From: Reclinomonas americana ATCC 50394
Taxonomy: Eukaryota
Length of the DNA: 41,780 bases
Direction: 5' to 3'
Assembly: GCA_048213135.1 (NCBI GenBank)
Contig: PS015017.1
Span: 21,080-62,859, forward strand
The position numbers and the translations under genes are program-made. Shown one piece after another: positions 1-32,350 of this stretch (position 1 is the stretch's first letter; each line of letters begins with the position of its first letter). The notes beneath the pieces are model-generated. The model saw only the letters and a list, made by a program, of their open reading frames with translations. It did no database searches and was not told the DNA's origin.

Positions 1-2843
<2,843 letters not shown>

Positions 2844-2922
2844 GAGAAAAGCAGTAAGACCAATGCAATAACGCGAGTCTGTCTCTCTCTTTAACTCTGT
2901 CTCTCTCTCACACAGGTGGTGC

Positions 2923-3175
2923 ATGAGCAGTGGTGGCGATCGGCAACCACTCCTGCACACCATTACCGCACCAAACACCGCATCAGCTTCGTCTTACGGA
3001 AGTGCGCACATGCAGCGACCACCCTCATCTCCGCGCATTCCCGAGCTCGTCCTCGGCCGCCTTGGAGAAGCAGGAGGAGGAGGGGGAAGAAGAGAGCATG
3101 AGGCAGTACCACCACTGCGTGAGGAAGGCACTGTGGCGTCATCAGCAGCAGCTGACACTGGTGACTGGCATACAA

Positions 3176-4964: not shown

Positions 4965-6612
4965 ATGGACGAGCAGGAGGAGGGGCCGTCGTCCTCATCG
5001 GCGTTCTCGTCAGAGGCCTTGAGAGAACGACTGGAGGCCTTTTGCAGACAGCACGACATTGATCCGCGAGTGTACTTTGAGGCCCCTGCAGAGCTCCCAC
5101 GATACTTTCGGTGAGAGACAAGCATGCATGCCCTCTCTCTGTGTGTGTGGTCTCTCTCTCTTTGACACACGCGTGCAGAGCGACACTGCGTGATCGTCTT
5201 CTCGACGCCCAAGGCGGATCATCGCATGTGAGTGACTGATGCCACCCTCGTCATCATCTTCAGTCACTCTCATTGTCTCTCTCTGTGCAGTCGGCGCTGT
5301 CGAGAGAGTGGCTATGTGAGCAGTTGAACACAGCAACTGTGCAGGAGGTGCCGTGGTTGCCCACATTCTTCCAGTGCGACGCTGATGTGAAGCTGGCTGG
5401 AGTGCCATTGTACGCAACCTCTTGTCACCCTCCTCTACTTCCCTCATACACCCCTCACGCCATGCCCTTTCTCTCACCAGATACACCACTGGCACTCTGT
5501 TTGGCATGGACGCGGCCTCGGCGTTTGCAGTCTGCACGCTGGATCCGCAGCCAGGCGAGTCGGTGCTGGACCTGTGCTGTGCGCCAGGCGCCAAGCTGTG
5601 CCTCATGGCGGAACTCATGCACAATCGCGGTCGCGTGGTCGGCGTTGACGTGGATCAGCCGCGGCTGCTGTCGTGTCGCAGTGTACTGCGCAAGTATCGA
5701 CTGGGAGCACGACCGCCGGTGCGCGTGAGAGGTCACACGAGAGAGGTGTCGCGTCGTCAGCGACGCAAGCGGCTGCGTGAGGAGGAGGAAGAGGCGCTGT
5801 TTGTCACGGTGGGAGCGTCGTCGTCTGCTGTGGTGGAGGAGGAAGAGCAAAAGGCAGAGGCGGGTGAGCTGGTGCCGGATCCGGATGGTGGTATTGTGCA
5901 GTTGGCTCTGGCCGACGGCACCACCTTTTGGGAGGCCGAGGGCGATGGAGCGCGGCAGTATGACCGGTGGGCGAAGTGAGGAGCGATATTTGTTGCTGCG
6001 ACACACAAGCACTCATTCGCCCCACTCCTGCAGAGTGCTGGTCGACGCGCAGTGCACACACGACGGCTCTCTGCGACACGTGCAGAAATCTGCAGAGACC
6101 AAGGGCATGGAGCACCTGGAGCAGCGTGTGATTGGTGAGAGTGTGGTGGAGGAGACCGTGCAGCTGCAGCGCCGCCTGCTCGATAATGGTTTCCGACTCA
6201 CGCGACCGGGAGGCGTGCTGGTGTACAGCACGTGCAGTCTCACTCGCGTGCAAAACGAAGGTTTTTTGTTGGTGGTGTTCCGCGACTATTCTCTTCATCG
6301 CTCACACACAGACACACAGGTGTCGTGGAGTGGATCCTGCAGCAGCACGCCGACGAGCTGGTGCTGGAGGATGCATCGGTGGAGTTTTCGAGAAGTGCGG
6401 CACTCCGGCTGCTTCGTGAAGTGCAGGTGGCATCGATGCAGAGCGCGGCTGCCGAGCCTGCGCCACCGCCACCACCGCCACCATGTCCACCACCATGTCT
6501 GGCTGGCACACTGCCGGGTACAGTGCGCTTTGATCCGCTGCATTCTCGGACCAGTGGACTGTTTGTGGCTCGGCTCCGACGACTGCCAACAGCAGCGGAT
6601 GCAGAGCGGTGA
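4965..6612 (+). CDS. NOL1/NOP2/Sun-family RNA cytosine-5 methyltransferase (6 exons)
   Basis: Motifs are GMDAASAFAV, VLDLCCAPGAK (SAM motif I), RVLVDAQCTHDG (motif IV), GGVLVYSTCSLTRVQNE (motif VI) and SGLFVARLRR. All junctions are phase-consistent GT-AG (5111, 5229, 5410, 5967, 6262). Confidence 0.92.
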
Positions 6613-6819
6613 CATCCTCTCCCTATTGCGTGTTTTGCGCGATATCAGATCGATGCCACAACTGCTGGCCGGTCATTCCGGGTCTGATGCGCGAGAGCCA
6701 TGTCTGACCTGGAGCTCTTCAAAAGAGCGAGTTCGCGACGCAAGTCGTCGTACGGACGTACGTAAACAAACCACACACACACACTACTTCATCATCATTA
6801 TTCCGTTTCCCCGCCACTC

Positions 6820-9800
6820 TCATGGAACCGCCGCCTCTCCACTCGCTGCTCCACCACTCACAACACTCACTTCCTCTGGTGCCGGCGGGTCTAGTTGCGT
6901 CGGATCGAAGCCACTGCGCTCAGCGAGTAATCTCAGCTGGCGCTGAATGCGACGAATGGCCTCGAGTCCGCTCATCTGGATCGACACCGTCTTTGCGGGG
7001 TTCGACTTGTTTTGCGGGAAATCGGGATTCACCCGAATGAGCACCACATCGAGGCCGCTCTTGGCGCCGGCACGCACCAGTCGTTCTGAGTTGTCGCGCA
7101 CAGTGGGAACCTGCACGAAGCGCGCACAAGGGGGCATGAGAAGATGAGGAAAAGGCGATGCAGGGACGGATGAGACGCACCCGAATTCCACATCCGAGCT
7201 CCAAGATCACCAACTTGCGCTTCTTGTTCACCAACATCAGCTCGCGCACCGTCTTCTCCCACTTGCTGTAGTGCTTTCGCGGCACTTCCACCCACTCGCC
7301 GTCGTCAAACATGAGAATGTCTAACGCAACAAACAGTCAGCACCACGACAATCACAAGCGCTCCTGCGTGTCACATAGCACGTCCACTCAACTTGGTCTG
7401 GCTGGCCGACTGCATCGCGGGCATCGCGGATGATTCTCCGGAGCCAGAGTGGTCGGTGCGGCAAACGGCCCCACCGCCACCACCGACGCCTCGTCCTCAC
7501 TGTCGACTCCGCTGACCGCCAGTGACATGTCGGAGCGAGCCGACGACAGCTGCGAATCTGCATCGCTATCGGCGGCAGCGGTTGTCGTAGTTGTCGTCGT
7601 CCCGCCGCTCCGACTGGCCCACAGACTGTCGGCACCGGCGACAGCGGCGGCGGCTGGTGGCTTGCCGGCTTCCGCACGACCGCGCAGCACATCGAGAGAC
7701 ACCGACAGTCGGATGCTCTCCACCGCATACCGCTCCGACACTACCACGCCACTGGCGAGGTTGGCCGGCGCGTACGGCACACTCGACAGAACCGACGAAG
7801 CGTGTGGTCTCGACAGTGCCGACGCATCCAACAGCAGCGGCGCACTGCGCAGTGCCTCTGTGCCTCGCTGACGCAACAGACTGCCTGTCGCTCCGCCGCT
7901 GATGGCGTGAATCGAGGGCGGAGGTGCTGGCTTCGCCTCGGCCTTGCGCAACCGCAGCGTGACGGAGCTGCCGCCGGCAGTGTACGCGGCTTGGTCGATG
8001 CGGCGGAACGGGTTGCCGACTGGCACCGTGAACTCGCCACGCACCGTCCACAGACAAGAGGACGAGGGACACAAGTGCGGTGCGTTCGTGGGTGAAGAGC
8101 CCTGCGGTGTCGAGTACAACGCCAGTTCGATGACGCTGGCAGAGGGCAGTAGCATGTCGGTGCCCACTGTTCTACTGCTCGACGACGACGACTGGTGGTC
8201 GCGGTCGCCGTCGGGTGAGCGGGAACGCGAACGACCAATACCACCACTACGCTGCTGCGGTGATCCGTCCACTGTGAGCGAGTGGGAGCCAGGGACCAAG
8301 TGGTGCCCGGTGGAGGAACCGGTGCCGTATCGCTGATCGAGTATGTCCTGAATCGACGAGTGTGTCCCAGAGAGATGCCGCGGTTGATTCGGGTAGTGGT
8401 GATGATGCTGCTGGTGGTGATGCTGGTGATGGCGATGGTCGCCACTTACAGACGCACCCAGAGTGCCTTGCAGATCGATTTCCACCTGACGCCACAAGGT
8501 AAATAGCAGCGGGGGGGAGGAGCAAAAAAAGGAAGAGTGGATGCACACCGATTCAAAATCGTCCCCGTCGGTACGCGAAAAGTCCAGCGAGCGCACCACC
8601 ACCTGAAACGCTCGCGGTTCCTCATCGGTCGTGGCCAGCGAGGCCAGCGACGAACTGCTACGTGACCGCGCATGTGCTGTGCGTGGTCTGGCCGGGTGTA
8701 ATCTGAGCACGAGGCAATAGGAACGGTCGTGTGGTGCGAGAGAGGGGAGTGGTGCCGCCGGTCGCATCGGAAGCGGTGACACGGCCAGCATGCGGAAATG
8801 CACTTCGGTGAAATCTGCGACACCAGCAAAAGGTTCAGTTGCATGCACTTGTGTTTTACGATGCGCGTGTCGCCGCCACGCAACTCTCCAGCGTTAGATG
8901 GAGGCAGTCGGCGAGTTTCATCGGCGTCACAGCGATGAATCGTTTTGATTCCGCTGCGTGCCACGAGTCATGGCGCGCCGGTGAATCCACCAAGCTCAAT
9001 GCCGACATGGCGCCGGTCAGCGACTGCATGGCCGGCGGCAACAACTGGGCGCTCTTCGACGGGTGATGCAGGGTGACCACGTGAGCCGATGGCTGCACAC
9101 ACGAGATGAGCACGCGATTTGTGGACGACGCAAACCACTGCTGCTGCGAGTCACGCAACTGGACGTGGGGCGGGGTGCTGACGACGCGCGGTCAGTTGCG
9201 CTCGTTGATGGTGTGCGACACGCGGAGCACGCATGGTGTCTTCGTTGACTTCGAACTGGAAGTTGGGCGGTAACCTCCACGTGGTCGCACAGCACGGCAT
9301 GCAGCACTGCCACATCTCCGAGTTGCCATGAATCTCCAACAGTGTGGCAGGGTCGAATCCGCAGCGCCGAAAGAACGCATCCACATTCGAGGTAAAAACG
9401 AAAAATGGAGAAATCGGGTCGGGGATCCACTCGGCCGGCGACTGCGTGTCGGTCAGACGCGCCGCCGATCGTGACCGCACCGCACTGACACCACTGCCAT
9501 TGGCGACCGTATTCGGTCGCGCCACACTGGCCGCCGTCGATGTCGCACGAGGGCCGGCCACAGACCGCGGCGGCGTTCTCCGATAGCTTGTGGAGGCGCG
9601 CGAGATACCACGCACACTCTGGCTCGCCCGCCGTCGCACATACATACTCGACGACTCGTCAAACAGTACAGTGTTCCACTGGCGCAGAATCGCGTATCCC
9701 TCGTGTGGCTTGGCGTCGCGGTAGCTGTTGGCACAGGAGCCCCAGAAGCCTACCATGACACATACATGAGCAGACGACGAAGAAGAAGAAGAAGAAGTGG

Positions 9801-10300
9801 TAGAAAGTGTCACACAGTATACCATAAAAGATCTCGGGGTCGCGACGAATCCACGATGGCTCGCAGAGGTCCGAGTACTCCACACCCATGCGATGATACG
9901 CCGGCACATCCGCAATGTCCTTGTACGTCTTCAGCCCGCTGTCGGCAGAGAAGCCAGCGCCAGCGGAGACCTGGGACGAGGGAAAGGGGAGAAGGATAAG
10001 GGGGGATGGGGGAGATGGGGGAAAGGGGAAAGGAGGAAAGGGTGAGGGAATTGGGGAAGGGGGAGGGGATGAAAGAAAGGGGAAAGGAAAAAGGCGACAG
10101 AGGGGAGAGGAAAGGAAGAAGGACGAGACGAAAGGGAGGAGGAGATGAACGCGAGAAGCAGAGGGAAGATAAGGCCAGTAGGAAAGGAAAGAATTGAACG
10201 ACAGTATGAGCGATGGAGAAAGACGAGAGAGAAAGGAAGAGAACGAAGAGGAAGAGAAACAAAGAAGCGCAGAGTGGCAGATAATGAGTAAAAAGTGGAA

Positions 10301-10364
<64 letters not shown>

Positions 10365-10367
10365 GAG

Positions 10368-10445
<78 letters not shown>

Positions 10446-10567
10446 GAGGAGGAGGAGGAGGAGGAGGAGGAGGAGGAGGAGGAGGAGGAGGAGGAGGAGG
10501 AGGAGGAGGANNNNNNNNNNNNNNNNNNNNCTCTCCTCGTGTGCGTCGTCGAGTCTCAGTGATGAGA

Positions 10568-10604
<37 letters not shown>

Positions 10605-11387
10605 AGGAGGAGGAGGAAGTGAGGGAGGGAAGAGAGGGAGGGAGGTGAGGGAGGGCAGAGAGGGAGGAAGGGGGAGAGGGAAAGGGGGAGAAGGGGGGAA
10701 AGGATTACGGAATGTGAGGGAAAGGGAGAGGGACAGGGAAGGAGGGGGGCAATGAGAGAGGGAGGGGATGAAAGGAAGGGGAAAGGAGAACGGCGACAGA
10801 GGGGAGAGGAAAGGGAGAAGGAGGAGAGGAGATGAACAGAGAGAGAGAGAGAGAAGGGAGAGGACCATAAGAGTGGGAAGGAAGATGACAAAGAGATGAT
10901 GATGATGATGATGATGAGTACGAATTAACAGTGTGGGAGAGAGTGTGTGTGTGAGAGAGAAAGAGACAAGTGAGCGAGCATGCCACGGTGAACACAAGAA
11001 CTACACCGACAAAACATATCGAGTAATCAAACCAATAATGTTAACATAAGAGCTGCTTCCCTCCCTCTCTCTCACACACACTCACACGCACACACACTCA
11101 CGCGCGCCACTCACCAACAGGAAATCCGCACTCCAAATGTGCTCCGCGGCCTCACAAATCACCTCCAAATCATCATCCGCCGACACCGCATCAACCGCAC
11201 TCGCCCCTCCTCTCCCACTGCGCAAAGGATTCTGAGAGACAGTTGATGTTGATGTTGCTCTTCGTGTGGGAGTGGTGCGTCGATTGAGTGAGGAGGAGGA
11301 GGAGGAAGAGGAGGACTTGAGAGTGGGAGACGCGCGGCGAGCAGCAGCAGCAGACGCGGTGGATTGTGCGGGTGCTTTGTCGCTCAT
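6820..11387 (-). CDS. Sir2-family (sirtuin) NAD-dependent deacylase, bacterial-like subtype, with a large internal insertion
   Basis: Motifs are EAAEHIWSADFLL|VSAGAGFSADSGL, FYGFWG..Y...PHEGY, FVFTSNVD, EIHGN..WQCCMPCC, then PRCPRCSRPARP, ILMFDD, VILELGCG..VPTVR and LIRVNP. The ATG is at 11387, with an alternative in-frame ATG at 11507. Confidence 0.88.
10304..10510. repeat. (GA)n/(GGA)n microsatellite inside the ~1.1 kb first intron of the sirtuin
   Basis: Read directly from the sequence. The same intron carries a ~50-nt duplication (gggatgaaag..ggcgacagaggggagaggaaagg at ~10067 and ~10766). Confidence 0.9.
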
Positions 11388-11756
11388 CTCTCTCTCTCGC
11401 GTGCGCGCGGGAGGTGGTGGAGAAGGGAAGACGGAAGACGGGTTAGGTGGTGACGATGAGGAAGGAAGGAGTTTCTTCGGGCGTCCTGCCGTTGGGACGT
11501 GTCGCATCAATCAATCATTCAATCAACGTCGAGCCACGGTTTTCTGTGGTGTTGTATACGTAGTTGGTCTGTTGTGTTGCAAGCTGGCGCTGTGTTTTTA
11601 CTCAATTCTTGACCTCAATACCGTCCGGCGACTCGGTATTGAGAACAGGTCATCTGCGACCAATGATGGTCCATGGCGCCCTTGCATTTTTCACCCTCGG
11701 CCCTTATACTTGGCAGGACGGGGAAGAGGCCAGGGCAAATCTTTGCTGGCCCACGG

Positions 11757-12097: not shown

Positions 12098-14109
12098 TCA
12101 GGACCTTGGTGGAGGAGCCAGCACGTGCCTCACGCTCTTGGGAACCTGTGCATCATCCATCCATGGTGAGCGTGCGAGCTTGCTTCATCGCCAGCAAGTC
12201 CTAGCATTACTCACCTTGTCTCTGTCGGCCGAGTTGTACGTGTGCAACAGGTCGGTGCTCCCGTACACAGCACGCAACAACAGCTGCTCGTTCTGCAGCA
12301 GGTCGCACACGTGTTCCTTGGCGAGTGGGTGCTCCGAGGCCACCCGCAGACACCGAATGGCGTTGGAGATGCAGTCGTCGCGGTGCTCCTGTTCACTGGC
12401 CGCCTTTACCCGACTGCCCACTCGTCTCACCAGATACTCCACCACGGGCGACAGCACCGCATCGGCAAACTCCGCCGCCGCTGACTTGGCATTCAAATGT
12501 ATCAACTGCCAGAGAAGGTGAGGAATAAACACAGTCATCCACCAAGTGACGCAGACGCAACGATTGTCGACAGCGCGCCCAGTGACGCCCGCTGCAACTC
12601 CATGTGCTTCTCGCCGTGGGTGAGCGCCAGCAACGATGTGCACGCCAGCAGCGCCAGTGTCGGCGACACGGCTGCCACCTCCTTGCCGTTGCTGTCCAAG
12701 CACGCCGTCCACACCATCTCCACCGCCGACAGCGCCAGCTCACAGTCGTTGCTGTCGTAGGCGTACTGCAGGACCCCGACCGCCACCGGTATCGAGTGGT
12801 GCCTGATCATCTCTTCGTGCGCATGTCGCAGACGTGCCAGTCGCTCCAGTGCAGCCAGTAGTCGCATGGCAGCGACGCGGTCAATCAGCGGGAGGCGGAG
12901 GTTGTCGGTAAGGATCTGTGAGAGATGATGGTGAGGACAAGGCGGCGGTTGCGGTGTGTCGGGCGTTGCACGCACCTCAATGGCGCCACCCGAACCACTC
13001 GCACTGTCCGCATACGAGGCCAGCAGCTCGGCGCCCTCCGTGGTCCGTGTTATGTTGTCGAAGAAGAGGGCCAGCGAGCTCTGGAGAGAGTACGAGGAAC
13101 ATGAGGGGTTGTGTTGTGGAAAAAGGAGGGAGTGAAGATTGCAGACCTGATACGAGGCATCGCGCGAGTGTGCAAACGCCGACAGCATCACCGGCACACA
13201 GTCGTGTGCCTTGAATTGCTCCGAGGCGGCAGTCAGCAGCGAAAAGTCGGCGAGTGCTTCGAAGCAGAGCGCGCAGAGGTCGAAGTCGTACCGGTGGTCC
13301 AACTGGCAACAGGGGAAAGGGAGGGGAAGGGATGAGAGAGAAGAAGAAGATAACGAACGGCGCATGCACAGTGACTCGATATTCTCGTGATATAGCACAC
13401 GAGAGAAATGGAGGAGAGGGTTGAGAGGGAAAGGTGAGATTGAGAGGTGACGGTAGGCGCACGTTGTCTCGCTGTCTTGTTGTCACTGCTGAGAGGCAGA
13501 AAGGTGAAGGGCGCACGCACAGCGGCCAGTGCTCTCGTAGTACAGGAAGAAAGAGAGAGACAGAGAGAACGTAAGTGTCACAGAACGTGCAAAGGAAATT
13601 GCAACGCCGTTTCTCTTCACAGATACATGCGTTGTCCGCTCACTCGACACTCTCCAACAGGTATACAAAGTGGCTTCGATATTCTCGATACTGATACACA
13701 ACATGCACACCCCTCTCATCGTGCACAAGCCTAAGAGCGAGAGTGCCACAGAACCAATTCGAACTCGGAAATACACGGAACAACAATTGCAAGACCGTTG
13801 CCCTTCGCACACATGCACTTGCAACACAAGCACAGTTGCCAACTGCGCTTTCTCACTCTCTCAAAAACGAGAGAGACACACTGAACGAGAAAGAGACGAC
13901 AATCACGCCTTCAACATATCGATATTCTTGATATTCTGGTGATACTCATGAACTGTAGCATACACACCCCTCTCACGGTTCACACGTCTTAGAAAGCAAG
14001 TGCCACAGAACCAATTCGACCTCGGAAATACACGGAACAACAATTGCAAGGCCGTTGCCCTTCGCACACACTCATACATGCACAGTTGCTCACTGCATCG
14101 TCTCTCATC

Positions 14110-14147
<38 letters not shown>

Positions 14148-14601
14148 GACGCACCAAGTGAGAAAGAGACAACAAAACACGCAGTTGCCTGTATCTCTCC
14201 CTTTCTTCTCCCCATTTCCCCTTCTCCCCTTCTCCCTTCGCCCTCTCCCTCTCCATCCAACTCACCAACACCGGCACCAACACCTTGACGACTCCCAGCG
14301 CCATCAACCGCAGCTTCTCCTGCGGCTCCCTCGTCAACGTGCACAGTACGCGCATGCCCTTGACCTTCTCCTCCACCTCCACATCCCCGCGCAACAGCAG
14401 CGAGAATGCACGCAGAATGCCCTCCGGCCCGTGTCCCCACGTCATCAAGGAGTCAATCGCCTCCAGCTTGTCGACGAATGTGGGGTCGACATCTGTGAGA
14501 GAGAAGAAGAAGAGGGAGAGTGAGTGTGAGAGGCGAAGGGAGGGAGAGAGAAGAAGAAGAGGGAGAGAGAGAGTGTGTAAGAGGCGAAGGGAGGAGAGAG
14601 A

Positions 14602-14669
<68 letters not shown>

Positions 14670-14980
14670 GACGNNNNNNNNNNNNNNNNNNNNNNNNNNN
14701 NNNNNNNNNNNNNNNNNNNNNNNNNNNNNNNNNNNNNNNNNNNNNNNNNNNNNNNNNNNNNNNNNNNNNNNNNNNNNNNNNNNNNNNNNNNNNNNNNNNN
14801 NNNNNNNNNNNNNNNNNNNNNNNNNNNNNNNNNNNNNNNNNNNNNNNNNNNNNNNNNNNNNNNNNNNNNNNNNNNATTCAGGCTACAAGAGGAGAGGCAC
14901 AACGCGGTGTCTGCAAAGGGAAGGCCGCGATGGACGAGCGAGAGGCGATCGTGTTTAGTTGTGATAACGCCTCTGTCCAT
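12098..14980 (-). CDS. Armadillo-repeat protein, resembling radial spoke head protein RSPH14/RSP8
   Basis: All-helical spliced exons read DVDPTF...TWGHGPEGILRAFSLLL...EKVKGMRVLCTLTREPQEKLRLMALGVVK, DLCALCFEALADFS, ELQRASLGALSTI and ISNAIRCLRVASEHPLAK, with TGA at 12098-12100. The putative first exon MDRGVITTKHDRLSLVHRGLPFAD (ATG 14980) lies across a gap. The family call is from recalled similarity. Confidence 0.6.
13670..14100. repeat. Intronic direct duplication (~257-nt offset)
   Basis: The 70-nt core gtgccacagaaccaattcga..cccttcgcacaca at 13743-13812 and 14000-14069 differs at only 2 positions. The flanks are more diverged, and a third decayed copy lies near 13575-13630. Confidence 0.9.
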
Positions 14981-15443
14981 TGGCTGGCCGGATGGATGGA
15001 AAAGCAATGCACCAATTCTCTTGTTGTGGCTCGGCAACTGCGATTCGTTCCTCGGCAAACGAGTGAGTTGAGGGCTGTCTTGACGAGCATGCATACGAAG
15101 CAACGGCAAAGGGAATGCATGTGTTCGAATTCGATATCGATTGGTGACAAATCGAATACTTCTTTCGGCCGAGTCCTTGTTGGCATCTCTCACCAAGACA
15201 TGCCAGCTGTGCACAAGGAAGCAAGCAACATAACCAATCCCAACCATGGCCATTCCGAAATCGTTGAAAGTCTTCATGGCGATGATTTGCAGCTTGCTAC
15301 AAGTTCGCAAACGACAACCACTCGGAATGCAGGAAGCAGCCGAGAACTGTCGTCATCGCCACCGAGTCAGAGACCACCACAACGGAGATCTCGTCGCTCC
15401 TCCTCGCAAAACAAACAATTTCCTTCATTGTGTACACAACCAA

Positions 15444-16639
15444 CTATATCACTCGCACCTCCATCAACACACCAAATACGACAAACACGACGTAGCAGGA
15501 GACGAGGAACCAGCCGAGCCAGCGGCCAAAGCTGCTTCCTCGCTTCGCAAAGATAATGTACGCGGACGTGATGGACAGCGTACTGATTAGCGTGACAAAG
15601 GCCGGCAGCAAGCTGCGCGGCGCCGACAGTGGCACTGGCGTGGGGTACTGGCGGACGGTTTGCACGGTCAGCGCGATGCCCAGTCCCATGACCATGTTCA
15701 GCATTGGGGAGCCGAAGCAGGCACCGACGGCCATGGCCGAGAAGCCACGAGCGCTGACAATGTGATTCGAGATGGTGTCTGCGGTCGTGAGAGCAGTGTG
15801 AGTTCACACAGGGGGGAACAAGATGCAGTCTGTCTCTCAAGCGCAAAGCAAGACGCAACCACTCAGTGAGTTGCCGACGCTGAGGACGGAAACTGCGAGC
15901 ACGGCGGCACTCAGACCAATCATGAGGCCCATGGCCTGCACACATGTGAAACGCAAGTCAGTCCAATGCCACACAAAATCTGCTCTTTCAGCTCACAGAT
16001 CATCTCAGCACAGTGGGGAGATCTCTCTTGAGCCTCTCTCTTCCAAGACGACAAAATCTCATCGCCAGCTCATATCCTCTTGCCGAGCTGGCTATTGTCT
16101 CGATTGTCTCACGGTCTTCCCATCTCTTTTTCCCTCTCTCCCACTCTTGCAACCACTAACTGCCGCATGCACGCTGGTATGCTTGTTGACTCACGAGATA
16201 CACCACAGTGTGAACTCATCCTTGCTGTCTCTTCCCTTTTCTCTTATCTCTCACACACACACACACACTCTCTCTCTCTCTCTCTCTCTCTACCTCACTC
16301 TCTCTTTCCCATCTCTTGATTCTTTCTCTCTCATTCCCTATCCCACTCTTTCTTTCTCTCATCCATCCTCATGCACTCTGGTATGCTTGTTGACCCACAT
16401 GAGAACAGAACCAGCAGCGCGAACTCATCCACGCTCTCTCTCTTATCCACTAACTTCTTCAGGTGCAGTCAGACATCTAGTGTGTTTGCTTACCCAAGCG
16501 CAAGTTACACAGTGCGAACTCATCCTCGCTCTCTCTTTCTCTCTCTCTCTCTCATCCTCTGACTGTCTCTGCACTCTATCGTGCTTGTTGACCCACACGA
16601 GAACAGCACCAGAACAGCAGCAGTGCGACCTCGTCCACG

Positions 16640-16973: not shown

Positions 16974-19900
16974 CGAACTGATTGCCTCATGCACTCCGGA
17001 ATGCTTGCTGTCTTCCCCCCTCCTCCCCCGTTTTTCTCCTCTTCTTCTCCTCTTCTCCCTTGTCCCACTCTTTCCCCCCTTTCTCTCGGCACGCAACATC
17101 AAGCAGGTTCACCACCTCGTTGGCCAGCACATACACCCAGCAAATCGAGGCGACAAAGCTGAGCAGCACAAACACCTGCCAAGCACACACACACGCAGGT
17201 GAGATCGTTGTATCACTGTCATATATATTCAGTGTCCACGCGTGTGACGCACCCAGTTCCACCGTGGCGGCGCGTCTTTCTTGGTGGTGAGGAACACCAG
17301 CAGAGAGCAACCGGCGCCGATAATGCCCGGCAGTGCCCACCCCGGCAGCGCACCAACATTCGTGTCCATGTTGTGCACGACCACAAAGAGCAAGTACGCG
17401 AAACCCTGCGTCGCCCCTCCATCAGCAACATGCAACGGTAGAACAAAACAATTGCTCGACACTCACAATCGGCGACAACACGGCAAACAGTCGCTGCCAC
17501 TTGCCGTCGTCGCTGTGCGGGCCAATGGTGCAGGAGAGCACAAAGCCAATGGGCCAGTAGATGGCCGAGAGCACTCGTCGGTACCATGGGCGCTTCGCCG
17601 CCGACGTTTCCGTCGACTCATCGCCCGTGGCTTGCGACTGCACGGTCATCGTCACCTCGGCTACTCACACAAAGCAAGTGAGTGAGTGAGTGAGTTCACA
17701 CACTTCCACCAACAGCCACGAAACTCGTGTCAAGGGTCGGCATGTCGCTGAATGGCGACGCGGCAGCAGTGGCCGCGGCAACCGACAGCCGATTGCCGCC
17801 TGGCGGTGAGCGCGCCCTTCCGCCATCGGTGATTTGCAACTCTTGCGGGGAGGTCGGGCGAGATCGCGTCCGCTGCGCCAGCGTCGGTCCATCCTCGGCC
17901 AGCACATTCGAATGCGGCGTCATTGACATGTGAGTCGCATGCGGGACACCGTCAGGTCGCCCGTCATCGTGGTACGTCGTCTGTGTCGACGGTCCACGCA
18001 TATGGAAACGAGTGACGGTGAGGTGTTGGCGTGGCGACGTGGGGCGACTGTGGCGACCACTGGGTCCAGCGCCTGCACATCAAAGGAAAGGGCATGGTTG
18101 GTACATGAAATGCGCGAGAGGGTGACTGATCACTCAATCGCACCAGCAACACTCGACGGCAGCGTCGGCAGCGACGTGGCCGACGACACAGCAGGCATGC
18201 TGGCCACCGCAGGCATGGCAGCAGCAGCAGCCGTGCCGGGCGACTGAGCGCGTGTTGGCGACTGCGGCAGCTGCGATAGTACCGGTGGTGATTGCGCACG
18301 GGATTGTATTGGTGAAGTGGGCGACTGCGGCAACGGCAGTTGCACCACATCACCCTGCACATTGACAGTGATGACGGTGGAACCGGCCTCGTGCTCCGCC
18401 AGTGCTCTCGTCCACTCGGCCTCCTCCTCTTCGTCGTCCTCGGCCTCGGCCTCCGCTTGTTCGGCGGCGGTGAGACCGACCTTGGGGTTCCAGGCTGCGA
18501 CAGAAGGGAGAGGGTGAGGGAAGGGGGGAGGGGGGGGGGGTGGGGGCAAGGGGAAGGGGAGAGAGGGAGAGGAGAGGGGGAGAGAAAGAGGGAGAGGGCG
18601 AGAGGGAGGGAGGGGGAGAGGGAGGAGAAGGGGAGGAAGGGCGGGAGGAGAAGGCGAGGGAGGGAGAGGAAGCAGAAGGAAGAGATTGGAAGAGACGTAG
18701 TGAATGCGGGAGAGGGGGGAGAGAGTGAGAAGGTGAGGAATAAGTCGTGGAGATAAGGCAAGGAACGAAGGAGAAACGGAAGGGAATGAGGGGGACGGAG
18801 AGAAAGAGGGAGAGGAAGATGAGGGAGGAGGAACGAGGAAGAGGCAGAAGTGGGAAAGGCTTGAAACAGAGAAATGCAACGAAGAGACTGCGGAGCAAGT
18901 GTGAATGAAGAAGGAGCTCCAACAAAACAACTCCTCTCGTTTCCTCCTGTCCCTCTCTCATTTCCCCAGCCTACGCACCAGCCTGAATGGCAAACATGGA
19001 TGGACTCTTTTGCAAGTGTCCCAAGAGAATTCCAGAAGGCGTCGCCGGTACGGTGCCGTGCGCCGCATCCTGTGGTATTCTCCGGTCGGGCAAGGCGCGT
19101 GGCGACAGTTTCTCTTTCAGCTCTGCAGCAGAGGTGGTGAGTGACAACGTACGGATACATCATCCACGCAGCCGACTCACCCGTATCAATAGCCGGCACC
19201 GAATCGGCAGCCTCACCCCACACCTTGGCCATTACCATTACTACGACGACATATCTGTCCGGGGAAAGGAGTAGAGAGTCAGAAACGTGCCACACCCTGT
19301 GAAAATTATTACGTGTGCGCCGACGCAACAATATGTACAAGACCAGCAAGCTGATGGCCTCTGGCAGAATAATCTCATTGTTGCTAATGATTCCAAACAC
19401 AAAGCACACGGCCAGCAGGAAGAACATGCTGTCGCGGATCATGGCGCGCTTGGTGATGAGAACGTCGAAGCGAATAATCAGCGTTCCCATGACCACGGTG
19501 GTGATGAAGAGGCCGGCGCCTGGCGACGGAGGAGAATTAGTGAGCCATCAGAGGAAACCAGAGAGGGAGAAGAAAGAAAATGGGGACTCACCAACGGGCT
19601 CGGCCACACCAACGTCCGCCATGCCACTGCAGACGCCGACGATGATGGCGGAGATGTCTGTGGGGGAAGGAGAGGGGGGAGGGGTGGAGTGAGAGGGGGA
19701 AAGGGGGAAGGGAGAGGGGGAAGGGAGAGGGGGAAGGGGGAAGGGAAGCACCACTCACCCGGTGCTCCATTTCCCAGCGCCAGCAGCGTGACACCGGCAA
19801 GATTGGCGGGCATGTGGAGCGCGTCGGCAATGTACGTCAGCGCCGGGCAGAAGAAGCGCTCCACAATGTTGGCCACCAGCCAGAAGAGGAAGACCAGCCA

Positions 19901-20614
19901 CAGGATCTGCAAGGCGGTGCACGAATGAGGCGACTGGGAAGGCTCTCTCTCTCACACACACGATCTTGCTCACCATGATGATAAACGTCAGTGCCACTCG
20001 CGTTCCACCCAGCACGCAGTACCGCAGCCGCATGTAGTTCTGCGCTCAGCACCATTAGCATCTGCATCACTCAACTCTCTCGTGTGCCTCAGCGAGTTGG
20101 AGACGCAACAATGAAGCCATTGGAGAAGGCATCGGGACAGTTGAGCTCCACCATGGCACACCGATCGGCGTCCGTGCCCGCCACCGCGTGAATGCCATCG
20201 CAGCCTTGCGAGGCACGCGTGGCCGCCGGCGCAGAGGTCTCCGTCAGCTCCTCATCTTGCACTCCGTCGGATTCAATGGGCTCCAGCGTGACAGGCTCAG
20301 CCGGCGCCGGCTTGGCCAGGATAACACTGCTGGTGTCGCCATTGTCGCTGAATGCGCCGTGCCCGAGCTCCGACCATGAGAGGATATCCGCGAGCAGTGG
20401 CTGTGGAAGGAGACAGGGATGAGATGTGAGGAGGAATGGCAAGTAGAGTGACACGTGGGGGCGTCAGTCATGTGAGAGAGGAAGGAGAAGGAAGGGAGAG
20501 CAGGGAGAAGAGAGAGTGAGAGAGAGGGGAGAGTGAGAGAAGGGAGACCACTCTTTCCGATGTGAGCGTGTGTGTGATGTATACAACTGTGTGTGTGTGT
20601 GCGTGTGTGTGTGT

Positions 20615-20697
<83 letters not shown>

Positions 20698-21412
20698 TAG
20701 TAGTGTGTCGTCTCGTCGTCGTAGTAGTACGTGTCGTGTGTGTAGTAGTAGTAGTAGTNNNNNNNNNNNNNNNNNNNNNNNNNNNNNNNNNNNNNNNNNN
20801 NNNNNNNNNNNNNNNNNNNNNNNNNNNNNNNNNNNNNNNNNNNNNNNNNNNNNNNNNNNNNNNNNNNNNNNNNNNNNNNNNNNNNNNNNNNNNNNNNNNN
20901 NNNNNNNNNNNNNNNNNNNNNNNNNNNNNNNNNNNNNNNNNNNNNNNNNNNNNNNNNNNNNNNNNNNNNNNNNNNNNNNNNNNNNNNNNNNNNNNNNNNN
21001 NNNNNNNNNNNNNNNNNNNNNNNNNNNNNNNNNNNNNNNNNNNNNNNNNNNNNNNNNNNNNNNNNNNNNNNNNNNNNNNNNNNNNNNNNNNNNNNNNNNN
21101 NNNNNNNNNNNNNNNNNNNNNNNNNNNNNNNNNNNNNNNNNNNNNNNNNNNNNNNNNNNNNNNNNNNNNNNNNNNNNNNNNNNNNNNNNNNNNNNNNNNN
21201 NNNNNNNNNNNNNNNNNNNNNNNNNNNNNNNNNNNNNNNNNNNNNNNNNNNNNNNNNNNNNNNNNNNNNNNNNNNNNNNNNAGAGAGAGAGAGGAGAAGA
21301 AGAGAGAGAGAGAGAGAGTCTACCACACTACGCGAACACACACACACCCTCCTCTGCCCAACCAACACACACTCCTCTCCTCCTCTCTCTCACACACTCT
21401 CTCTCCTCCTAC

Positions 21413-21448
<36 letters not shown>

Positions 21449-21615
21449 TCTGGTTGTCTCATTTTCGCATCTGCACTCACCGACTTCTCCTGTTGTTGTT
21501 GCTGCTCACGCTGTGCGCTGCTCTCCACACTCCCCAACACAACAACACCAACAACAGCCACCACAAGGAATATAACAACAACAAGTCGTCGACTACAAGC
21601 CCTTAATCTTGTCAT
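15444..21615 (-). CDS. Cation:Ca2+ exchanger, CCX/NCLX (SLC8B1-like) subfamily
   Basis: The alpha-1 repeat reads FFCPALTYIADALHMPANLAGVTLLALGNGAPD, followed by RDSMFFLLAV. The alpha-2 repeat reads AVLAVSVLSVGNSLSD...MAVGACFGSPMLN. An N-terminal Cys motif (GCDG...RC...NC) is present. A putative hydrophobic first exon, MTRLRACSRRLVVVIFLVVAVVGVVVLG (ATG 21615), lies upstream of a gap. Confidence 0.9.
16165..16650. repeat. Degenerate intronic repeat in the exchanger gene
   Basis: About four units of atgcac-ctggtatgcttgttgac-cac...cagtgcgaactcatcc, separated by (CT)n tracts, with a partial copy near 16988. Confidence 0.8.
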
Positions 21616-21859
21616 TTTCTGTGAAACAGAGAGGAGAGTAGCCGTTGCAAGCGTGAAATGTCGCACACGGGACACACGCTGGCCCTCTCTCACACACACG
21701 CAGGCAAGAACACAGAGAGTGCGAGAGTGTCTGTGTGTCTGTGTGTGTTGAGAGGGGCTCTGTTCGGTCTGACTCTTTGCGAAACAATGAGAAAACCAAA
21801 TAAAATTTCAGCGTGCGTCTACTGTAGATTGTATTTTGCGATTGGTTGTAGAAGGCAAC

Positions 21860-22143
21860 AACAACAACTTTGCGAATTCAAACAGCACCACAACTGCATG
21901 ATAATCGCCATCTTGAGTGAGCACGAGATAAACTGAGACAACACGGCAACACACACGCGTACGAGAGAAAATCGAAATAATTATAATGCTCGTCACGGCA
22001 ACGTTTCTGCAACAACAACGACTTTGCGAATTCAAACAGCACCGCAGCTGCACGGTGATCGCCATCTTGAGTGCACGTGAGCACCAGATAAACTGAGACA
22101 ACACGGCAACAGGCACGAGAGAAAATCGAAATTCTAATTATAA
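21860..22143. repeat. Tandem duplication (~130-nt unit, ~153-nt period) in the divergent intergenic region
   Basis: caacaacaac..ctttgcgaattcaaacagcacc..atcgccatcttgagtg..agataaactgagacaacacggcaaca..cgagagaaaatcgaaat..aattataa occurs at 21860-21986 and again at 22010-22143. Confidence 0.92.
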
Positions 22144-22650: not shown

Positions 22651-24928
22651 AGCGTGCGTGTATGTGAGGGACAGAGGCGTGCACCCTCTGATTGATTGAT
22701 TCTTTGCTCACTTTGCCACCTGTCACTTGTCATCTCCGGTGCCCGACAACTCGTTCACTGTCAGAATGTCTTCCTCTCACTCCTCTCACTCCTTCTCTCT
22801 CTCTCTCTTTCCTTCTTTCTTTCATTCTCTTGTGACTCGACTCCACATTTACGAGTTCCATCTTCCTCCGAGGTCATTCTCCTCCTCTCCTCCTCTCTAT
22901 GCCCCTCTCTCTCTCTCCTTCTCATACACCCATGCTCAACGCGACCACTTGTTCAGTGACAGTTCAATCATCCTGTCATTCTTCTCGCGACGCTCATTCG
23001 TTCCCGCCACCCTCACAACAGCGCACCGTGGACAAGGTCGGCAAGAAGTTCTTTGGCCCCTCTCGTGCGGAGCTGGTGCGTACCTCCTCTGCCCCCTCCT
23101 CCCATATACTTGTTTCCTCTCACAGCTCATGGTTGGTTATCGCTCTTGATTGCTTGTCGATAGCCGGACGCGCCGCGCAAGGCCAGCTACCTGGTGAGTC
23201 CTCCGCCCCTCTTTCCGCTTCTCTCCTCCGTATTCCGTCACTCGTATCGTATGTACCCACGTGCACACACGTTGAACAGTGCATGCTCTCGATGGTCAAT
23301 CCGTAGAGGGAGACTCACTTGAAGAAGCACGCACTTTTCTCATCACGACTTGCGCGCGCTCCTCACTTTCTCGAAACACATCTTTATCGTCGTCCTCCGC
23401 ACCACATGGCACGTGAGACAGAAGAATCTTGACGTCTGCACCTCCGTCTTTCCCCGCACCATGATGCACTTGCATGGTGTTGGTGTTGTCTCGTTTCTTT
23501 CTCAGTTTCTGCTCGGTTACACTCTGTCTTCTTTCTTCACTCTCTCTCTCTCCCTCTTTTTGTTCTCTTCCTGCTGCACTGTCTCTCTCTCTCTCCCTCT
23601 TCCTCTTCGTCGTCTCTGCCTGTCTCCCTCTTGTCTCTCTCTCTCTCTCTCTGTTCAGGTTGCCTCTGCTGTTCGTTTTGTCTCTTTTCTTCCTCCTTCC
23701 CTTCGAAGCACTTGTCCTTTCATTCTCGTGGCCATCGCTTGCTTGCTTGTCGCCCTGGTCTTCTCTCCCTGTTTTACTTTTGCGCTGTCCCTCCTCTCAT
23801 TCCCTCCTGCCACTCTCTTCCCTTCTCCGTCTTCTTCCCCGATTGTGGCATTCTCACTGTCTCCCCCCTGTCCTTGTGTCGCACTGTTCTCCTTTCTCTT
23901 ACCCTCCCTTCTCTCGCCTTCTCCTTCCCCCCTCTCCCCTGTCTCCCTCACCCTTCCCCCTTTCTCTTTCCCCCTTCTCCCCTCACCCTTCTCCCTTTTC
24001 CCCTTCCCCCTCACCGCAGCTCAAGCTCAGCCGCAACCACCACCACGCCCGCGCACGCTGGGTCGAGCTCCGCGGCTCTCGCATCTACTGGTGCCGCTTC
24101 CACAACGACACCCGCCCGCATGCCTTTTTCGAGGTGCGCCTTGCCAACCCCCCCTCCCTCTTCCACTCCTCCTCACTCACTCCTCCCCCTGCGCGCAGCT
24201 CACCGACATCACCTCGATGTTCACGTACGTGTCACCGTCGCTGGCTCCGGCGCTGCGCATCAACACCCGCTCGCGCGCCTACGTGTTTGTCGACGAGACG
24301 TCGGCGCCGTGCGACATGACCAACATCAACGAGTGGCGCGACGCCATCACCGATGCCATGCTGCAGGCGGGTCTGGAGCCGCCGCCAGTGAGCGAGGCCG
24401 GACACCCGGTGGTGGCCTCGGCGCAGGTGCCGCCGGGCATGGTGCCGGCCCACGTGCACTACATTCCCGTGCCGCAGGAGGACGGCAGTGTGATTATTGT
24501 GGCGAGCCCGGTGCCGGACAACTCGCACGATGTCGTTGCGTCCCTGCTCCTGCACTTCTTCTCCCCTTCCCTCTGTCTCATCACCTCCCACACAGCCTAC
24601 CATCGACCCCACCATGGTGCCACGTCCGCGTCAGCCGTCGTCGTCATCGTCGACCACCACCACGACGACCGCCTCGTCGGGCATGACCCCGATGCCGCCG
24701 TCACCGCAGGTCGTGGCACCGCCGCCGCCTTACCCGGTGGTGTCGACCGTGCAGCGGTCGGCCGCCGCCTCGCCTGGCGTGGGCATGTTTGTGGCCCCCA
24801 CCGGCACCATCAATCCGGGCAGCACCACCACCACCACGGTGCCGAGTGCGCCGGTGGCGCGTGACCCGCTGTTCGGGCTCGGCTCCGACGACAGTGACGA
24901 GCAACATTCCGTCAGTCGTCGCGTGTAA
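22318..24928 (+). CDS. PH-domain protein with a Pro/Ser/Thr-rich tail
   Basis: Spliced product M|GLLDRLQKIGETLDRTVQ|RTVDKVGKKFFGPSRAEL|PDAPRKASYL|LKLSRNHHHARARWVELRGSRIYW...FE|LTDIT...LRINTRSRAYVF...NINEWRDAITDAM. This matches the PH pattern (K-G/S-YL-K, RW, terminal helix Trp). The stop is TAA at 24926-24928. Confidence 0.85.
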
Positions 24929-25179: not shown

Positions 25180-25590
25180 TTTCAGCATTAACAAAAGCCA
25201 TTAATATTTCCATTCCGTTTATAAATCTATACAAATTATCACTCTCCTCTTCCTCCTGCTTCTCAGTCACCTCCCATTCCACTTATTAGCATCTCTGCAC
25301 ACCAGTGGCACTTTCTCTCTCCTCCACTCCTTCTGCTGCTGCTTCTCAATTTCAGCATGAACAACAGCCGTTTCCCTTTCCATTTTTATCTCTCGTCCTC
25401 TCCTCTCCTCTCCTTCCACTCCTGGTTCTCAGTCACTTCCAGTCCATTGATTAGCACCTCTGTACACAAGTGGCACTCTCTCTCCTCCACTTCCCCTGCC
25501 TCCCCTCTCCTGCTTCACAGTTTCAGCACAAAACAAAAGCCATTTCCCATTCCATTTATTATCACCTCTACACATCCATGGCATTCTCTC
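25180..25590. repeat. Degenerate tandem repeat between the convergent PH and MFS genes
   Basis: tttcagca..aacaaaagcc occurs three times and cagtcac..cc..attagca-ctctg-acac-agtggcact-tctctcctccact occurs twice, with a period of about 170 nt. Confidence 0.75.
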
Positions 25591-27306
25591 TCCCTCTCCT
25601 CCTCTCATCCCCCACCTCCCCCACCTCTTCCTCCTCCTCTTGCTTCTCCCCCCTGTCCCCCTCTGCACTCTCACTGGCGTCATTACGATTATTATTGCTG
25701 CGCTCAGTGTCCCCGGCGAATCCATCGATGCCACCATCACCATCGGCGTCGTCGTCGTAGTTGTCGTTGTCCGGGAGCTCCGTCAGAACCTGGTGCGAGT
25801 CATGCGCATGCGCGCCACCCCTACGATGCGAGGGGATCAAGTGCGGTCGTAACCGGCGGTGCAGGCACTTGAGCACCACCGCCATGACGCCGCCAAACAG
25901 CGTGATGCAGCCGCATACGACAATGCCGGTGGCGTAGGAGCCGGTGCGCGTCAGTGAGAGGCCGAGAATGCCGGGTCCGAGCCAGCCGCCGACGTTGCCA
26001 ATCGAGACGACAATGGCGGTGCCGACGGCCTTGGAGGTGCCGCCGTGCAGACTCTCCGACAACCACGCAATGGTCGGCGCCAGCATGCACCACGCCGCAC
26101 TCGACACAAACACCAGCACCACGTACTGGAAGGCCAGGCTGCCGGTGGAGATGGCCGCGCCCATCAGGAAGAAGCACACACCGGAAACGGTGGCCGGTAC
26201 CGTAATGTGCCACGCGCGCTCGTGTGTGCGATCCGAGTGGAGCGCGTTGAAGAGTGTGAAAACGAGAGCGACGGCATACACCGGCACCGTCATGAGGTTG
26301 CTGACGAGCGAGCCGAAGCCCGTCGACGCAATCAGCGTCGGCAAGAAGAAGGCCACCCCGTAAAACGGCAGCACCATGCAAAAGTAGACGAGTGCCGTCA
26401 TCCACAGATTCCAGTCCAACATCGTCTGCTTCACCTCCACGCACGAAATCGACCGATCGGCGTGACCCGTCGCGTGCCCGAGACGCGCACACGCAATGTA
26501 CCTCTCACGCTCCGTCAGCCACTTGGAGTCGGCCGGGCGATCCGGCAGCACGAACCACGTCAGGATGCCGAACAGCACCGTCACCGAACCCTCCACGAGA
26601 AAGATCCACTGCCAGCCGCGCAGGCCTCCATAGCCGTCCAACTGCAACAAAAAGTACGCCACAACGCCGCCAAACACGCCCGCCACCGTCGACGACGAGA
26701 AGAACAGGGCGATGCGCAGCGCCTGCTCCGCCGGCTTGAACCACAGCGTCAGGTAAAACACAATGCCCGGAAAGAAGCCGGCCTCCGCAATGCCCAAGAA
26801 GAGGCGCGCCACGCACAAGCCCGTCAGGTTGTTGACAAACACCATCAGTGCAGTGATGAGACCCCAGGTGAACATGATGCGGGCGTTCCACAGCGACGGG
26901 CTCGTCTTTTTCAGAATCATGTTGCTCGGCACCTCGAACAGGCAGTAGCCAATGAAGAAGACGCCGACGGCAGTGGTGTAGTCGGTGGCGGTGAGGTGCA
27001 AGTCGGCGAGCAGTGAGTCGTGTGCGTTGGAGAGGTTGACGCGGTCGAGGAAGGAGAGCATGTAGAGCACGGAGGCGTAGGGAATGATGCGGACGGTCAT
27101 TTTGTGCACGAGAAGGCGCTCTTCCTCGGCTGTCCACGGACTGAGACAGAGAAGGAGGAGTGAGGATGCAGAGTGTGAGGGTGATGCTTTCTCTCTCTGT
27201 GTGTGTGCTCACCCCTGTGCATTGCTTGCAACGTCGTCCTTGTCGGCGACTGGAGATGCAGATGATGATGATGCATGTTCCTCATCATGCAATCGTTGCG
27301 ATGGAC
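25568..27306 (-). CDS. MFS transporter, anion:cation symporter (allantoate/nicotinate/tartrate permease-like) family; start not resolved
   Basis: One long exon (27140-25568) carries RIIP..LYMLSFLDRVNL, FFIGYCLFEVPSN, RLFLGIAEAGFFPG..YLTLWF, GLRGWQWIFLVEG, LPDRP..SKWLT.RER and SIGNVGG..GP. A phase-compatible upstream exon lies at ~27306-27213. Confidence 0.93.
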
Positions 27307-29692: not shown

Positions 29693-30075
29693 GGTTCGCG
29701 TTCCGGGAGTGTAAAAAAACTTGAAAGCACATGCGACTTGTGTGCTTCTTTTGTCGACATCCATCCTGTCACATTCTGCCGGATTTTGACGGGTGTATCT
29801 GTGTGAAGCTGTTTTCGGGTCAAGCAAGGGATATATTTGGCAGAGGCGGGGCAGGTTGTATTAGATCCGATCCGGCCACCCACGCAGCTTCCTGCCCAGA
29901 CTGCAGCAGTGTGATGCACGTGTACTCGCGAGTCGATCGTCGACGCAACCAAAAATAGCGACTTGGGGTGCTCACGCCCCACAGCCGTACATAGTGGGGC
30001 GGATCCTCAGCAAAAAAAAAAAAAACTCCCGTGACGAGCAGCTTTCGCTTGCCTCCTCCTCAACGTCGCACAAAC

Positions 30076-31423: not shown

Positions 31424-32075
31424 AGCGAGCACGGCGCCATCGATTCATTGATTCCGAGCTCACGAGAAGGTGACGGTGGCAGATACAATTACAGCACCGG
31501 GGACTGACCTTCCACAAAACCAAATTCGGCGTGAGGCCAAGGATGCCCGACTCATTGTCGCACGTCTCCCAGTGAAGCTCCGGTGACATGATTGGTGTGT
31601 CACTGATACACGGCACAAGCGTATAGCAATGGTCTCGACGATCAAAGTGTTGTTTGTGTGCACCTGCGATGGTGGGATCACGTGCACCGCCGTCGAGGAT
31701 GACGAAACCGAGATTGTACTAAGCAGTGCGCCTGGCGACTGAGGAAGCGGCGCATAGACAGGGGAAGAGGTGGGCGAAGCCGCACCTGCAGATTGCAATT
31801 CTTCGGGTGCGGGTCGGACCATGGCCATCTGCGGGACAGGGAGTGAGCACACGCAAGTGACACAGTGCACGTTCCTCACGTCGTGTAACTGGCGCGCCGA
31901 ATAAATAAGTCGACAAGGACGACATATATCGCGACGTCGACGTTCATTCAAGTTTTGTGGTTGACGCTCCTTCTCGCGATCGTCCGAGGGCCTGCTTCGT
32001 AATTGTGAAGTAGCGCGATGAACATGCCGCCGCACGTGACGTGCAAGCTGGCGTTTGTGGATACGTGTTCCGCAA

Positions 32076-32350
32076 GCAGGACATTTTTTCGAACGCAATC
32101 ACGCGATCTCCCCACCTCGCCCTCGGCCTTGCTGTGGCCCTCATTGCTGTGTGCATCGTACTCCTACACAGCATGCTTCACGACGACGACGAAGCCGCGG
32201 AAGACAGAGTCGCTGTTGGTGAGAGAGAGACAGGAGAGAGAACACACACACAAAGTCTCTTGCTCATTCTTCCCGCTGCAGCAGCACCACTGGCGCTCTC
32301 AGCGAGACAATGGATCGATGTGAGAGACGATGGTATGCATGCATTCCCCT
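32076..32350 (+). repeat. Segmental duplicate, copy 2 (5' end of the EEP gene)
   Basis: Matches 30076-30352. Confidence 0.95.

Follow-up and report, generated by a model that had tools for sequence, protein, structure and literature searches.

The sirtuins are a known family, as is the variability of their zinc modules, and it is the zinc module that shapes substrate choice. In the canonical enzymes about 20 residues lie between the two pairs of cysteines (Cys) that serve as zinc ligands. Class M is defined by QG in place of HG and by genetic linkage or fusion to a macrodomain (PMC4518038); in bacteria the linkage includes GcvH-L and LplA2. Here we describe a Sir2-like gene in a stretch of 41,780 nucleotides (nt) from Reclinomonas americana ATCC 50394 (contig PS015017.1, positions 21,080 to 62,859 of the forward strand; hereafter the window, in whose own numbering all positions are given). 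With a probability of roughly 0.7, we read this locus as a single protein-coding minus-strand gene (about 11387-6820; seven exons and about 1023 amino acids, predicted), encoding a divergent protist Sir2-like protein in which a further domain is nested between the two Cys pairs, an arrangement uncommon among sirtuins.

An earlier, sequence-only reading of the window had placed these Cys pairs about 1.9 kb apart, with mostly open sequence and short GT-AG introns between them, and both statements stand. Read on the minus strand, WQCCMPCC occupies 9313-9290 and PRCPRC 7429-7412, leaving 1.87 kb between; within it lie a 501-codon frame and two candidate GT-AG introns of 67 and 70 nt that join the frames. 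In the gene model WQCC falls at residue 287 and PRCPRC at residue 869, so that the pairs are 582 amino acids apart. The 501-codon frame (7388-8893, minus strand) is free of stops, reads directly into the second Cys pair (..NHPRCPRCSRPARP) and is continuous with the conserved NHxxCPxC..RPN motif; its openness has a chance probability of ~2e-6 at the regional base composition, and it was open in none of 2000 shuffles. The core motifs are complete and in order, i.e., GAGxSxDSG, TSNVD, EIHG, the two Cys pairs, RPNILMFDD and ELGCGxxVPTVR, with GAGFSADSG, TSNVD and EIHG at model residues 95, 260 and 279, where they align to the motifs of the family and of SirTM; the catalytic His of EIHG is in place, as had been claimed. 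Both halves of the four-Cys site, WQC..PC and CPRC, occur in the window protein as predicted zinc ligands, and C170, C236 and C239 are invariant in the family alignment A4. That the insert is in frame with the core, within a single Sir2-like gene, is supported.

The nested domain is recognised by comparison with three members of the same family, P0018, P0040 and P0061. Nine blocks of the window insert occur in the same order in these proteins, both in an E-INS-i alignment of the whole proteins and in a MAFFT alignment (A2), and the insertion site is identical in all four, after TMRAP and before N[HF]xxCPxC. The three share with the window gene the family, the subclade, the nested beta-domain and its insertion point; they differ from it in that their domain is compact (about 170-240 amino acids, with short loops), whereas that of the window is spread over about 370 amino acids of exon 4, is preceded by an extra exon and is followed by an Ala/Thr/Ser-rich tail of about 90 amino acids. 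Of the 473 residues of exon 4, about 201 can be aligned to two or more homologues, the remainder forming loops in which Ser, Ala, Pro, Arg, Thr and His are abundant. From the window alone it had been proposed that low-complexity loops interrupt a beta-strand domain, and this is borne out by collinearity with a domain that occupies the same site, in compact form, in three relatives. Six of the seven strands then proposed fall on blocks conserved in the homologues (A2); the seventh, VIELALYS, lies in a loop found in the window only.

The strength of this similarity was measured by a chain score, i.e., the best collinear chain of ungapped blocks against an alignment of the three homologues built without the window. 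The window insert scored 107, against 65.7 ± 7.0 for global shuffles and 65.6 ± 7.2 for local shuffles in 25-residue segments (reached by 0 of 500 in each case), and the reversed insert scored 63. A repeat run with the insert gave z 5.5 (0 of 300 shuffles) and the 501-residue open reading frame (ORF) gave z 5.8 (0 of 200); the leave-one-out scores of the true members were z 5.1, 7.0 and 9.1. As controls, nine other long inserts of the family ranged from z -0.4 to 1.5 and thirteen other window ORFs of at least 300 amino acids from -2.1 to 0.2.

The AlphaFold model of window exon 4, made from the four rows of A2, has a predicted local distance difference test (pLDDT) score of 38.5 and a predicted template modelling (pTM) score of 0.29, with seven strands and one helix; that of the compact P0061 domain, made from a further alignment (A3), has pLDDT 56.1 and pTM 0.54, with ten strands in an all-beta arrangement. 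Under A2, 46 of the 57 strand residues of the window model align to strand residues of P0061, and eight more belong to VIELALY. In A3 the window row is partly misplaced, and its sole use there was to assist the modelling of P0061. An alignment of full-length homologues (A1) was discarded, as it misaligned the insert against the core.

A number of points weigh against a nested domain, and several of them are what one would expect if the insert were a runaway low-complexity, intrinsically disordered expansion of a variable loop, the block similarity being due to chance or composition and the window protein holding no folded domain. Low-entropy windows take in 418 of the 574 insert residues; the exon-4 model is poor, with 410 of 473 residues below a pLDDT of 50; a plain hidden Markov model (HMM) of the three compact domains has the window ORF as its top match outside the training set, at an E-value that is not significant (0.21, 6.9 bits); the window ORF has no Pfam match at E<=1; and six family members (P0041, P0122, P0113, P0058, P0019 and P0146) carry long inserts with no detectable domain. 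Pairwise BLAST yielded short pieces at E 0.019-0.17, one of them out of order, and MAFFT placed the window row differently in A3 and A2, which marks the alignment as fragile. The window and P0061 models share alignment rows, so that the agreement of their strands is not independent, and Foldseek returned nothing from the PDB at E<=0.001. Introns 3 and 4, both within the insert, are predicted from GT-AG ends, size and frame. Finally, a search for homologues of the insert that screened 7999 candidates of the 'longer' length class yielded no match at E<=0.01 and a profile search with A2 recovered P0040 and no further members; these blanks are weak, as is that of P0018 residues 335-545, which found P0018 itself and nothing else, since low-complexity words probably crowd out relatives.

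Disorder throughout the insert is nevertheless unlikely in our judgement. The chain z of 5.5-5.8 was reached by none of 300-500 shuffles, composition-keeping local ones included, and all 22 real-sequence controls stayed at or below 1.5; the strongest block, LWTVRGEFTVPVGNPFRRIDQ, has its G, P, F and D in common with each of the three homologues; and the bearers of the domain cluster on the core tree described below. Weak standard statistics are, moreover, expected where loops of 20-90 residues separate the blocks.

The gene model was built by predicting splicing from frames, GT-AG ends and homologue junctions. At four of the junctions, those of introns 1, 2, 5 and 6, splicing reproduces the homologue sequence exactly. 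At the 5' end, an ORF at 11085-11510 is the top window match to an HMM of the N-terminal helix of the family (E 0.0023), and joining exon 0 to exon 1 (donor GTGAGT at 11114, CAG acceptor at 9971) gives ..ADFLL/VSAGAG, the same as in homologues. Exon 2 reads FWGSC..TSNVD..EIHGNSEMWQCCMPCC..FEVNEDTMRAP, after which its frame runs into a stop at 9153. Intron 3 joins this frame to a third one, open over 8859-9191 and with codon-position GC of 0.60/0.52/0.78, the third-position value being the highest of any segment; its donor word and size class are those of the introns fixed by homology. Intron 4 is the only simple route from there into the 501-codon frame, and these two GT..AG intervals join the three frames exactly. 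No recognisable homologue of exon 3 was found.

The five short introns are uniform in size (73, 67, 70, 72 and 70 nt), with donors GTTGCGTG (twice), GTTGAGTG, GTGCGTCT and GTATACTG and with YAG acceptors throughout, which suggests a genome with tightly size-constrained tiny introns; the acceptor of intron 1 brings the count of YAG to all six modelled introns. Four further in-frame short-intron candidates in exons 2 and 4 have donor-like starts and were rejected, their acceptors being AAG or GAG. Intron 1 has GA, GAGGAG and GAGG repeats throughout its ~1.1 kb, with a GC skew of 0.81 (bin 10001-11000).

These splice signals also bear on a second alternative, in which the insert, or most of it, is absent from the mature protein, either removed as a long intron or alternative exon to leave a compact sirtuin, or belonging to a separate nested gene. 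A phase-compatible GT at 9159 paired with an AG just before AAT CAT CCG (NHP) would indeed give an in-frame compact product, and most loops in the family are short (median 75). The acceptor required is GGAG without a pyrimidine run, against YAG at the six modelled introns, and none of the four donor-like in-frame short-intron candidates ends in YAG either; an intron would hardly be expected to stay open for 1.4 kb in phase with the exon beside it; and a homologous domain occupies the same site in three single-chain predicted proteins, one of them from an annotated genome. We consider removal of the insert very unlikely. Least probable is that the gene is decaying into a pseudogene or that unrelated pieces were wrongly joined in assembly, as the 1410 undetermined bases (N) in the window, the gap in intron 1 and the interruption of the exon 2 frame at 9153 are set against family motifs that are all intact and ordered, frame changes that coincide with GT-AG intervals of one size class, and no N between 6820 and 9970.

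The preferred reading, a single gene with its domain between the Cys pairs, is laid out in Table 1. Gene callers are likely to split or truncate such a gene because of the assembly gap in its first intron and the position of two other introns within coding sequence of low complexity.

Table 1. Predicted exons, introns and conserved blocks of the Sir2-like gene, in window coordinates (a slash marks a splice junction)
Feature	Position	Strand	Remarks
Exon 0	11115..11387	-	Start ATG 11387-11385 provisional; ends ..VICEAAEHIWSADFLL, then donor GTGAGT
Intron 1	9971..11114	-	1144 nt as assembled; 20 N inside, so true length may differ
Exon 1	9823..9970	-	NAD-binding motif GAGFSADSGLKTYKD to ..EIFYG; aligned with family consensus
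Intron 2	9750..9822	-	73 nt, GTATAC..TAG; join is FYG/FWGSC, exactly as in homologues
Exon 2	9160..9749	-	FWGSC..PHEGY, variable Arg/Ser/Ala-rich loop, TSNVD, EIHGN, WQCCMPCC, FEVNEDTMRAP; weak Pfam SIR2 match
Intron 3	9093..9159	-	67 nt, GTTGCGTG..TGCAG; predicted, without homologue support
Exon 3	8885..9092	-	69 codons and one base; first portion of insert
Intron 4	8815..8884	-	70 nt, GTTGCGTG..CGCAG; predicted
Exon 4	7393..8814	-	About 473 amino acids: nested beta-domain blocks and long low-complexity loops; ends NHPRCPRCSRPARP(N); second zinc Cys pair 7429-7412
Intron 5	7321..7392	-	72 nt, GTTGAGTG..GTTAG; join is ARPN/ILMFDD, family consensus
Exon 5	7181..7320	-	ILMFDDGEW..LVILELGCGIR
Intron 6	7111..7180	-	70 nt, GTGCGT..TGCAG; join is GCGIR/VPTVR, as in homologues
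Exon 6	6820..7110	-	VPTVRDNSERL..LIRVNPDFP.. up to stop codon 6822-6820
Conserved beta-domain block span	7700..8800	-	Collinear with P0018, P0040 and P0061; coordinates from exon frame
Block HFRMLAVSP	about 8800-8774	-
Blocks YCLVLRLHP, FQVVVRS, SSFFCSS, QVEIDL, SLTVDGS	in that order after HFRMLAVSP	-
Block LWTVRGEFTVPVGNPFRRIDQ	8053-7991	-	Strongest block
Block SVTLRLRK	7966-7943	-
Block YAVESIRLSV	7729-7700	-
His/Gln-rich tract HRHHQHHHQQHHHH	8397..8425	-	Within nested-domain loop; 15-nt tandem repeat

The loop between the zinc-ligand Cys pairs is an insertion hotspot in this family. The expectation in the sequence-only reading of only tens of residues between the pairs holds for canonical sirtuins but not for the family, in which the span from WQC to the RP of RPNILMF (RP follows the second Cys pair) runs from 38 to 426 amino acids with a median of 75, nine spans being at least 200; this could be measured in 97 of the 150 matches listed, the other 53 being fragments or without one of the motifs. 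At 589 amino acids, the span of the window protein exceeds all 97. Inserts of 240-385 amino acids occur at the same site in P0113 (Carpediemonas membranifera), P0122 and P0041 (Aduncisulcus paluster), Pro/Ser-rich or charged and coiled-coil-like in character, and no trace of the beta-domain was found in these three (chain z -0.4 to 1.3). The loop has thus taken up inserts on several independent occasions. A short insert before CPHC in P0001 (883 amino acids) holds G..W.G.R.NPFKSI, aligned under the G.F.VPVGNPFRRID block of the window, and may be what is left of the nested domain, which this relative otherwise lacks.

Judged by its sequence, the window gene belongs to a family of Sir2-like, predicted NAD-dependent enzymes found across protists. 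An exon 2 query against 1.84 billion representatives retrieved 844 at E<=1e-3, of which 239 reached E<=1e-10 and none E<=1e-30 (best 8.1e-26), and the named members are all protists, i.e., Andalucia godoyi (P0018, a 'conserved mitochondrial SIR2 superfamily protein'), Carpediemonas membranifera ('Sirtuin family'), Aduncisulcus paluster and Pyramimonas parkeae. Exon 2 by itself matches Pfam SIR2 (PF02146) weakly, at 14.6 bits (E 0.033), which is below the cut-off of 24 that P0018, P0040 and P0061 exceed, and all 30 members of A4 match it at E<=0.01 (best 1.8e-14); CobB-type matches in NCBIfam are sub-threshold. The best solved matches of the A4 profile are SpySirTM of S. pyogenes (5a3a, E 2.3e-15) and, at E 4.8e-12, a fusion of SirTM with a macrodomain (8rsn), followed at ~1e-9 by SIRT5 and archaeal and bacterial Sir2. 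The NAD motif SGLKTYKD, which had been called atypical, is present but turns out to be the norm of the family: after SGL the cofactor loop reads YKD in 35 of 105 matches, the commonest form, and KT in 4 of 105, and the canonical Arg position is often A, N or K.

In a tree restricted to the core, with 38 rows (of the 150 matches, 112 that lacked one of the four core motifs were dropped, as were cluster duplicates and the window-derived P0157), the window protein falls in a ten-row group with a Shimodaira-Hasegawa-like approximate likelihood ratio test (SH-aLRT) support of 94, which also holds the clade of P0018, P0040 and P0061 (SH-aLRT 95). Presence of the domain requires two changes on this tree, a number as low in 1 of 500 shuffles. 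The pattern would fit one gain of the domain with later losses, and falls short of proving it. The best core identity of the window, 57%, is to P0113 of Carpediemonas, which has a long Pro/Ser-rich insert in which the domain was not detected (chain z 0.66).

As to which kind of fold the domain might be, C2 domains are a candidate. The P0061 domain model aligns with C2 domains (those of PTEN, SHIP2, Itch, E-Syt, PKC and others) over ~90-100 residues at a root-mean-square deviation of 3-4 Å, and 26 of the 50 listed structure rows for this model name C2 in their title. An Atlas model of P0018 resembles immunoglobulin-like sandwiches (TM 0.33-0.43), a search of the ESM Atlas by features gave no usable match for the P0018 or P0061 insert, and Pfam C2 was not matched, the insert regions of P0018, P0040 and P0061 having no match at E<=10. 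It is a tentative proposal, and one we hold as doubtful, that the insert is an undescribed C2-like beta-sandwich nested in the zinc-binding module of a His-retaining, SirTM-related clade, common to the jakobid Andalucia and to the present protist, which has GC-rich DNA and tiny introns and finds its closest core match in a Carpediemonas protein. On that reading the domain would be an old eukaryotic invention that joins an NAD-dependent enzyme to membrane or partner binding next to its substrate cleft, and the window copy would show a fold surviving loop expansions of 50-90 residues.

We propose that, in one subclade, a compact all-beta domain is housed in the loop between the Cys pairs, and that the window gene has the same domain, its inter-strand loops lengthened by low-complexity sequence rich in His, Ser, Ala/Pro and Thr, which would account for Cys pairs 582 residues apart. 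Such expansions may be tolerated because they are located between strands. The sirtuin core is probably an active NAD-dependent deacylase, since the His, Asn and Asp machinery is kept, and the nested beta-sandwich would project from the zinc module beside the substrate cleft, where it may bind a partner, a substrate or a membrane. A sirtuin with a whole folded domain nested at this point would be aimed or regulated in a new manner. A literature search of partial coverage found no description of a folded domain between sirtuin zinc Cys pairs, nor of a His-retaining SirTM-like protist clade. The compact versions of Andalucia and P0061 are tractable for structure determination and assay, and the window version offers a natural test of tolerated loop expansion.

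GC content is high, at about 0.55-0.63 near the locus, and the window has a eukaryotic look; its several gaps mark it as part of a draft assembly, and regions of low GC (0.35-0.44, at 2001-3000, 14001-15000, 20001-22000 and 32001-33000) alternate with stretches of 0.60-0.67. A plus-strand open frame at 5729-6943, converging on the 3' end of the sirtuin gene, matches RsmB/F (NOL1/NOP2/Sun-type) RNA methyltransferases at E 8.9e-9 over residues 102-184. Two neighbouring long ORFs lie at 25571-27208 and 27788-29860 (both minus strand), one a Major Facilitator Superfamily transporter (E 2.1e-34) and the other with several CCCH zinc fingers and a weak VWA match. Five ORFs of 420-527 amino acids (17967-19547 and 1579-2907, minus strand; 23323-24861, 14162-15553 and 37882-39144, plus strand) matched no Pfam family at E<=0.001, and some of these may be low-complexity or non-coding frames, as is typical of GC-rich DNA.

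Compared with described enzymes, the closest are the class M SirTM proteins (5a3a, and fungal macrodomain-SirTM fusions, e.g., 8rsn), which among solved structures match best both the family profile and, at E 0.0015, the window exon. Both groups have T.N.D, W/LQC following the catalytic position, an enlarged zinc module and a strand reading E.G.G...P. They differ at the catalytic site, which is QG in class M and EIHG in the window, with His before Gly in 133 of the 133 family matches in which the motif was found. The family is SirTM-like in sequence but not class M because the catalytic His is kept, and membership of class M was rejected on this ground. There is no nested domain between the Cys pairs of SirTM, and no macrodomain was found in the gene model or in the ten largest window ORFs scanned, a scan that did not cover small or spliced genes. 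With the canonical sirtuins of classes I-IV and U (SIRT5, Sir2Af, Sir2Tm, Hst2 and SIRT6) the family shares the Rossmann core with GAGxS, the catalytic His, the Asn/Asp motif and the four-Cys zinc site, with profile matches at E 1e-9 to 1e-5. It differs from them in its cofactor loop, SGL..Y[K/A/R/N]D against GIPDFR, in which the Arg is not conserved, and in its C-terminal strand, ELGCG..VPTVR. A nested domain of this kind would also mark out a little-studied protist clade placed between the classical deacylases and the ADP-ribosylating enzymes of class M.

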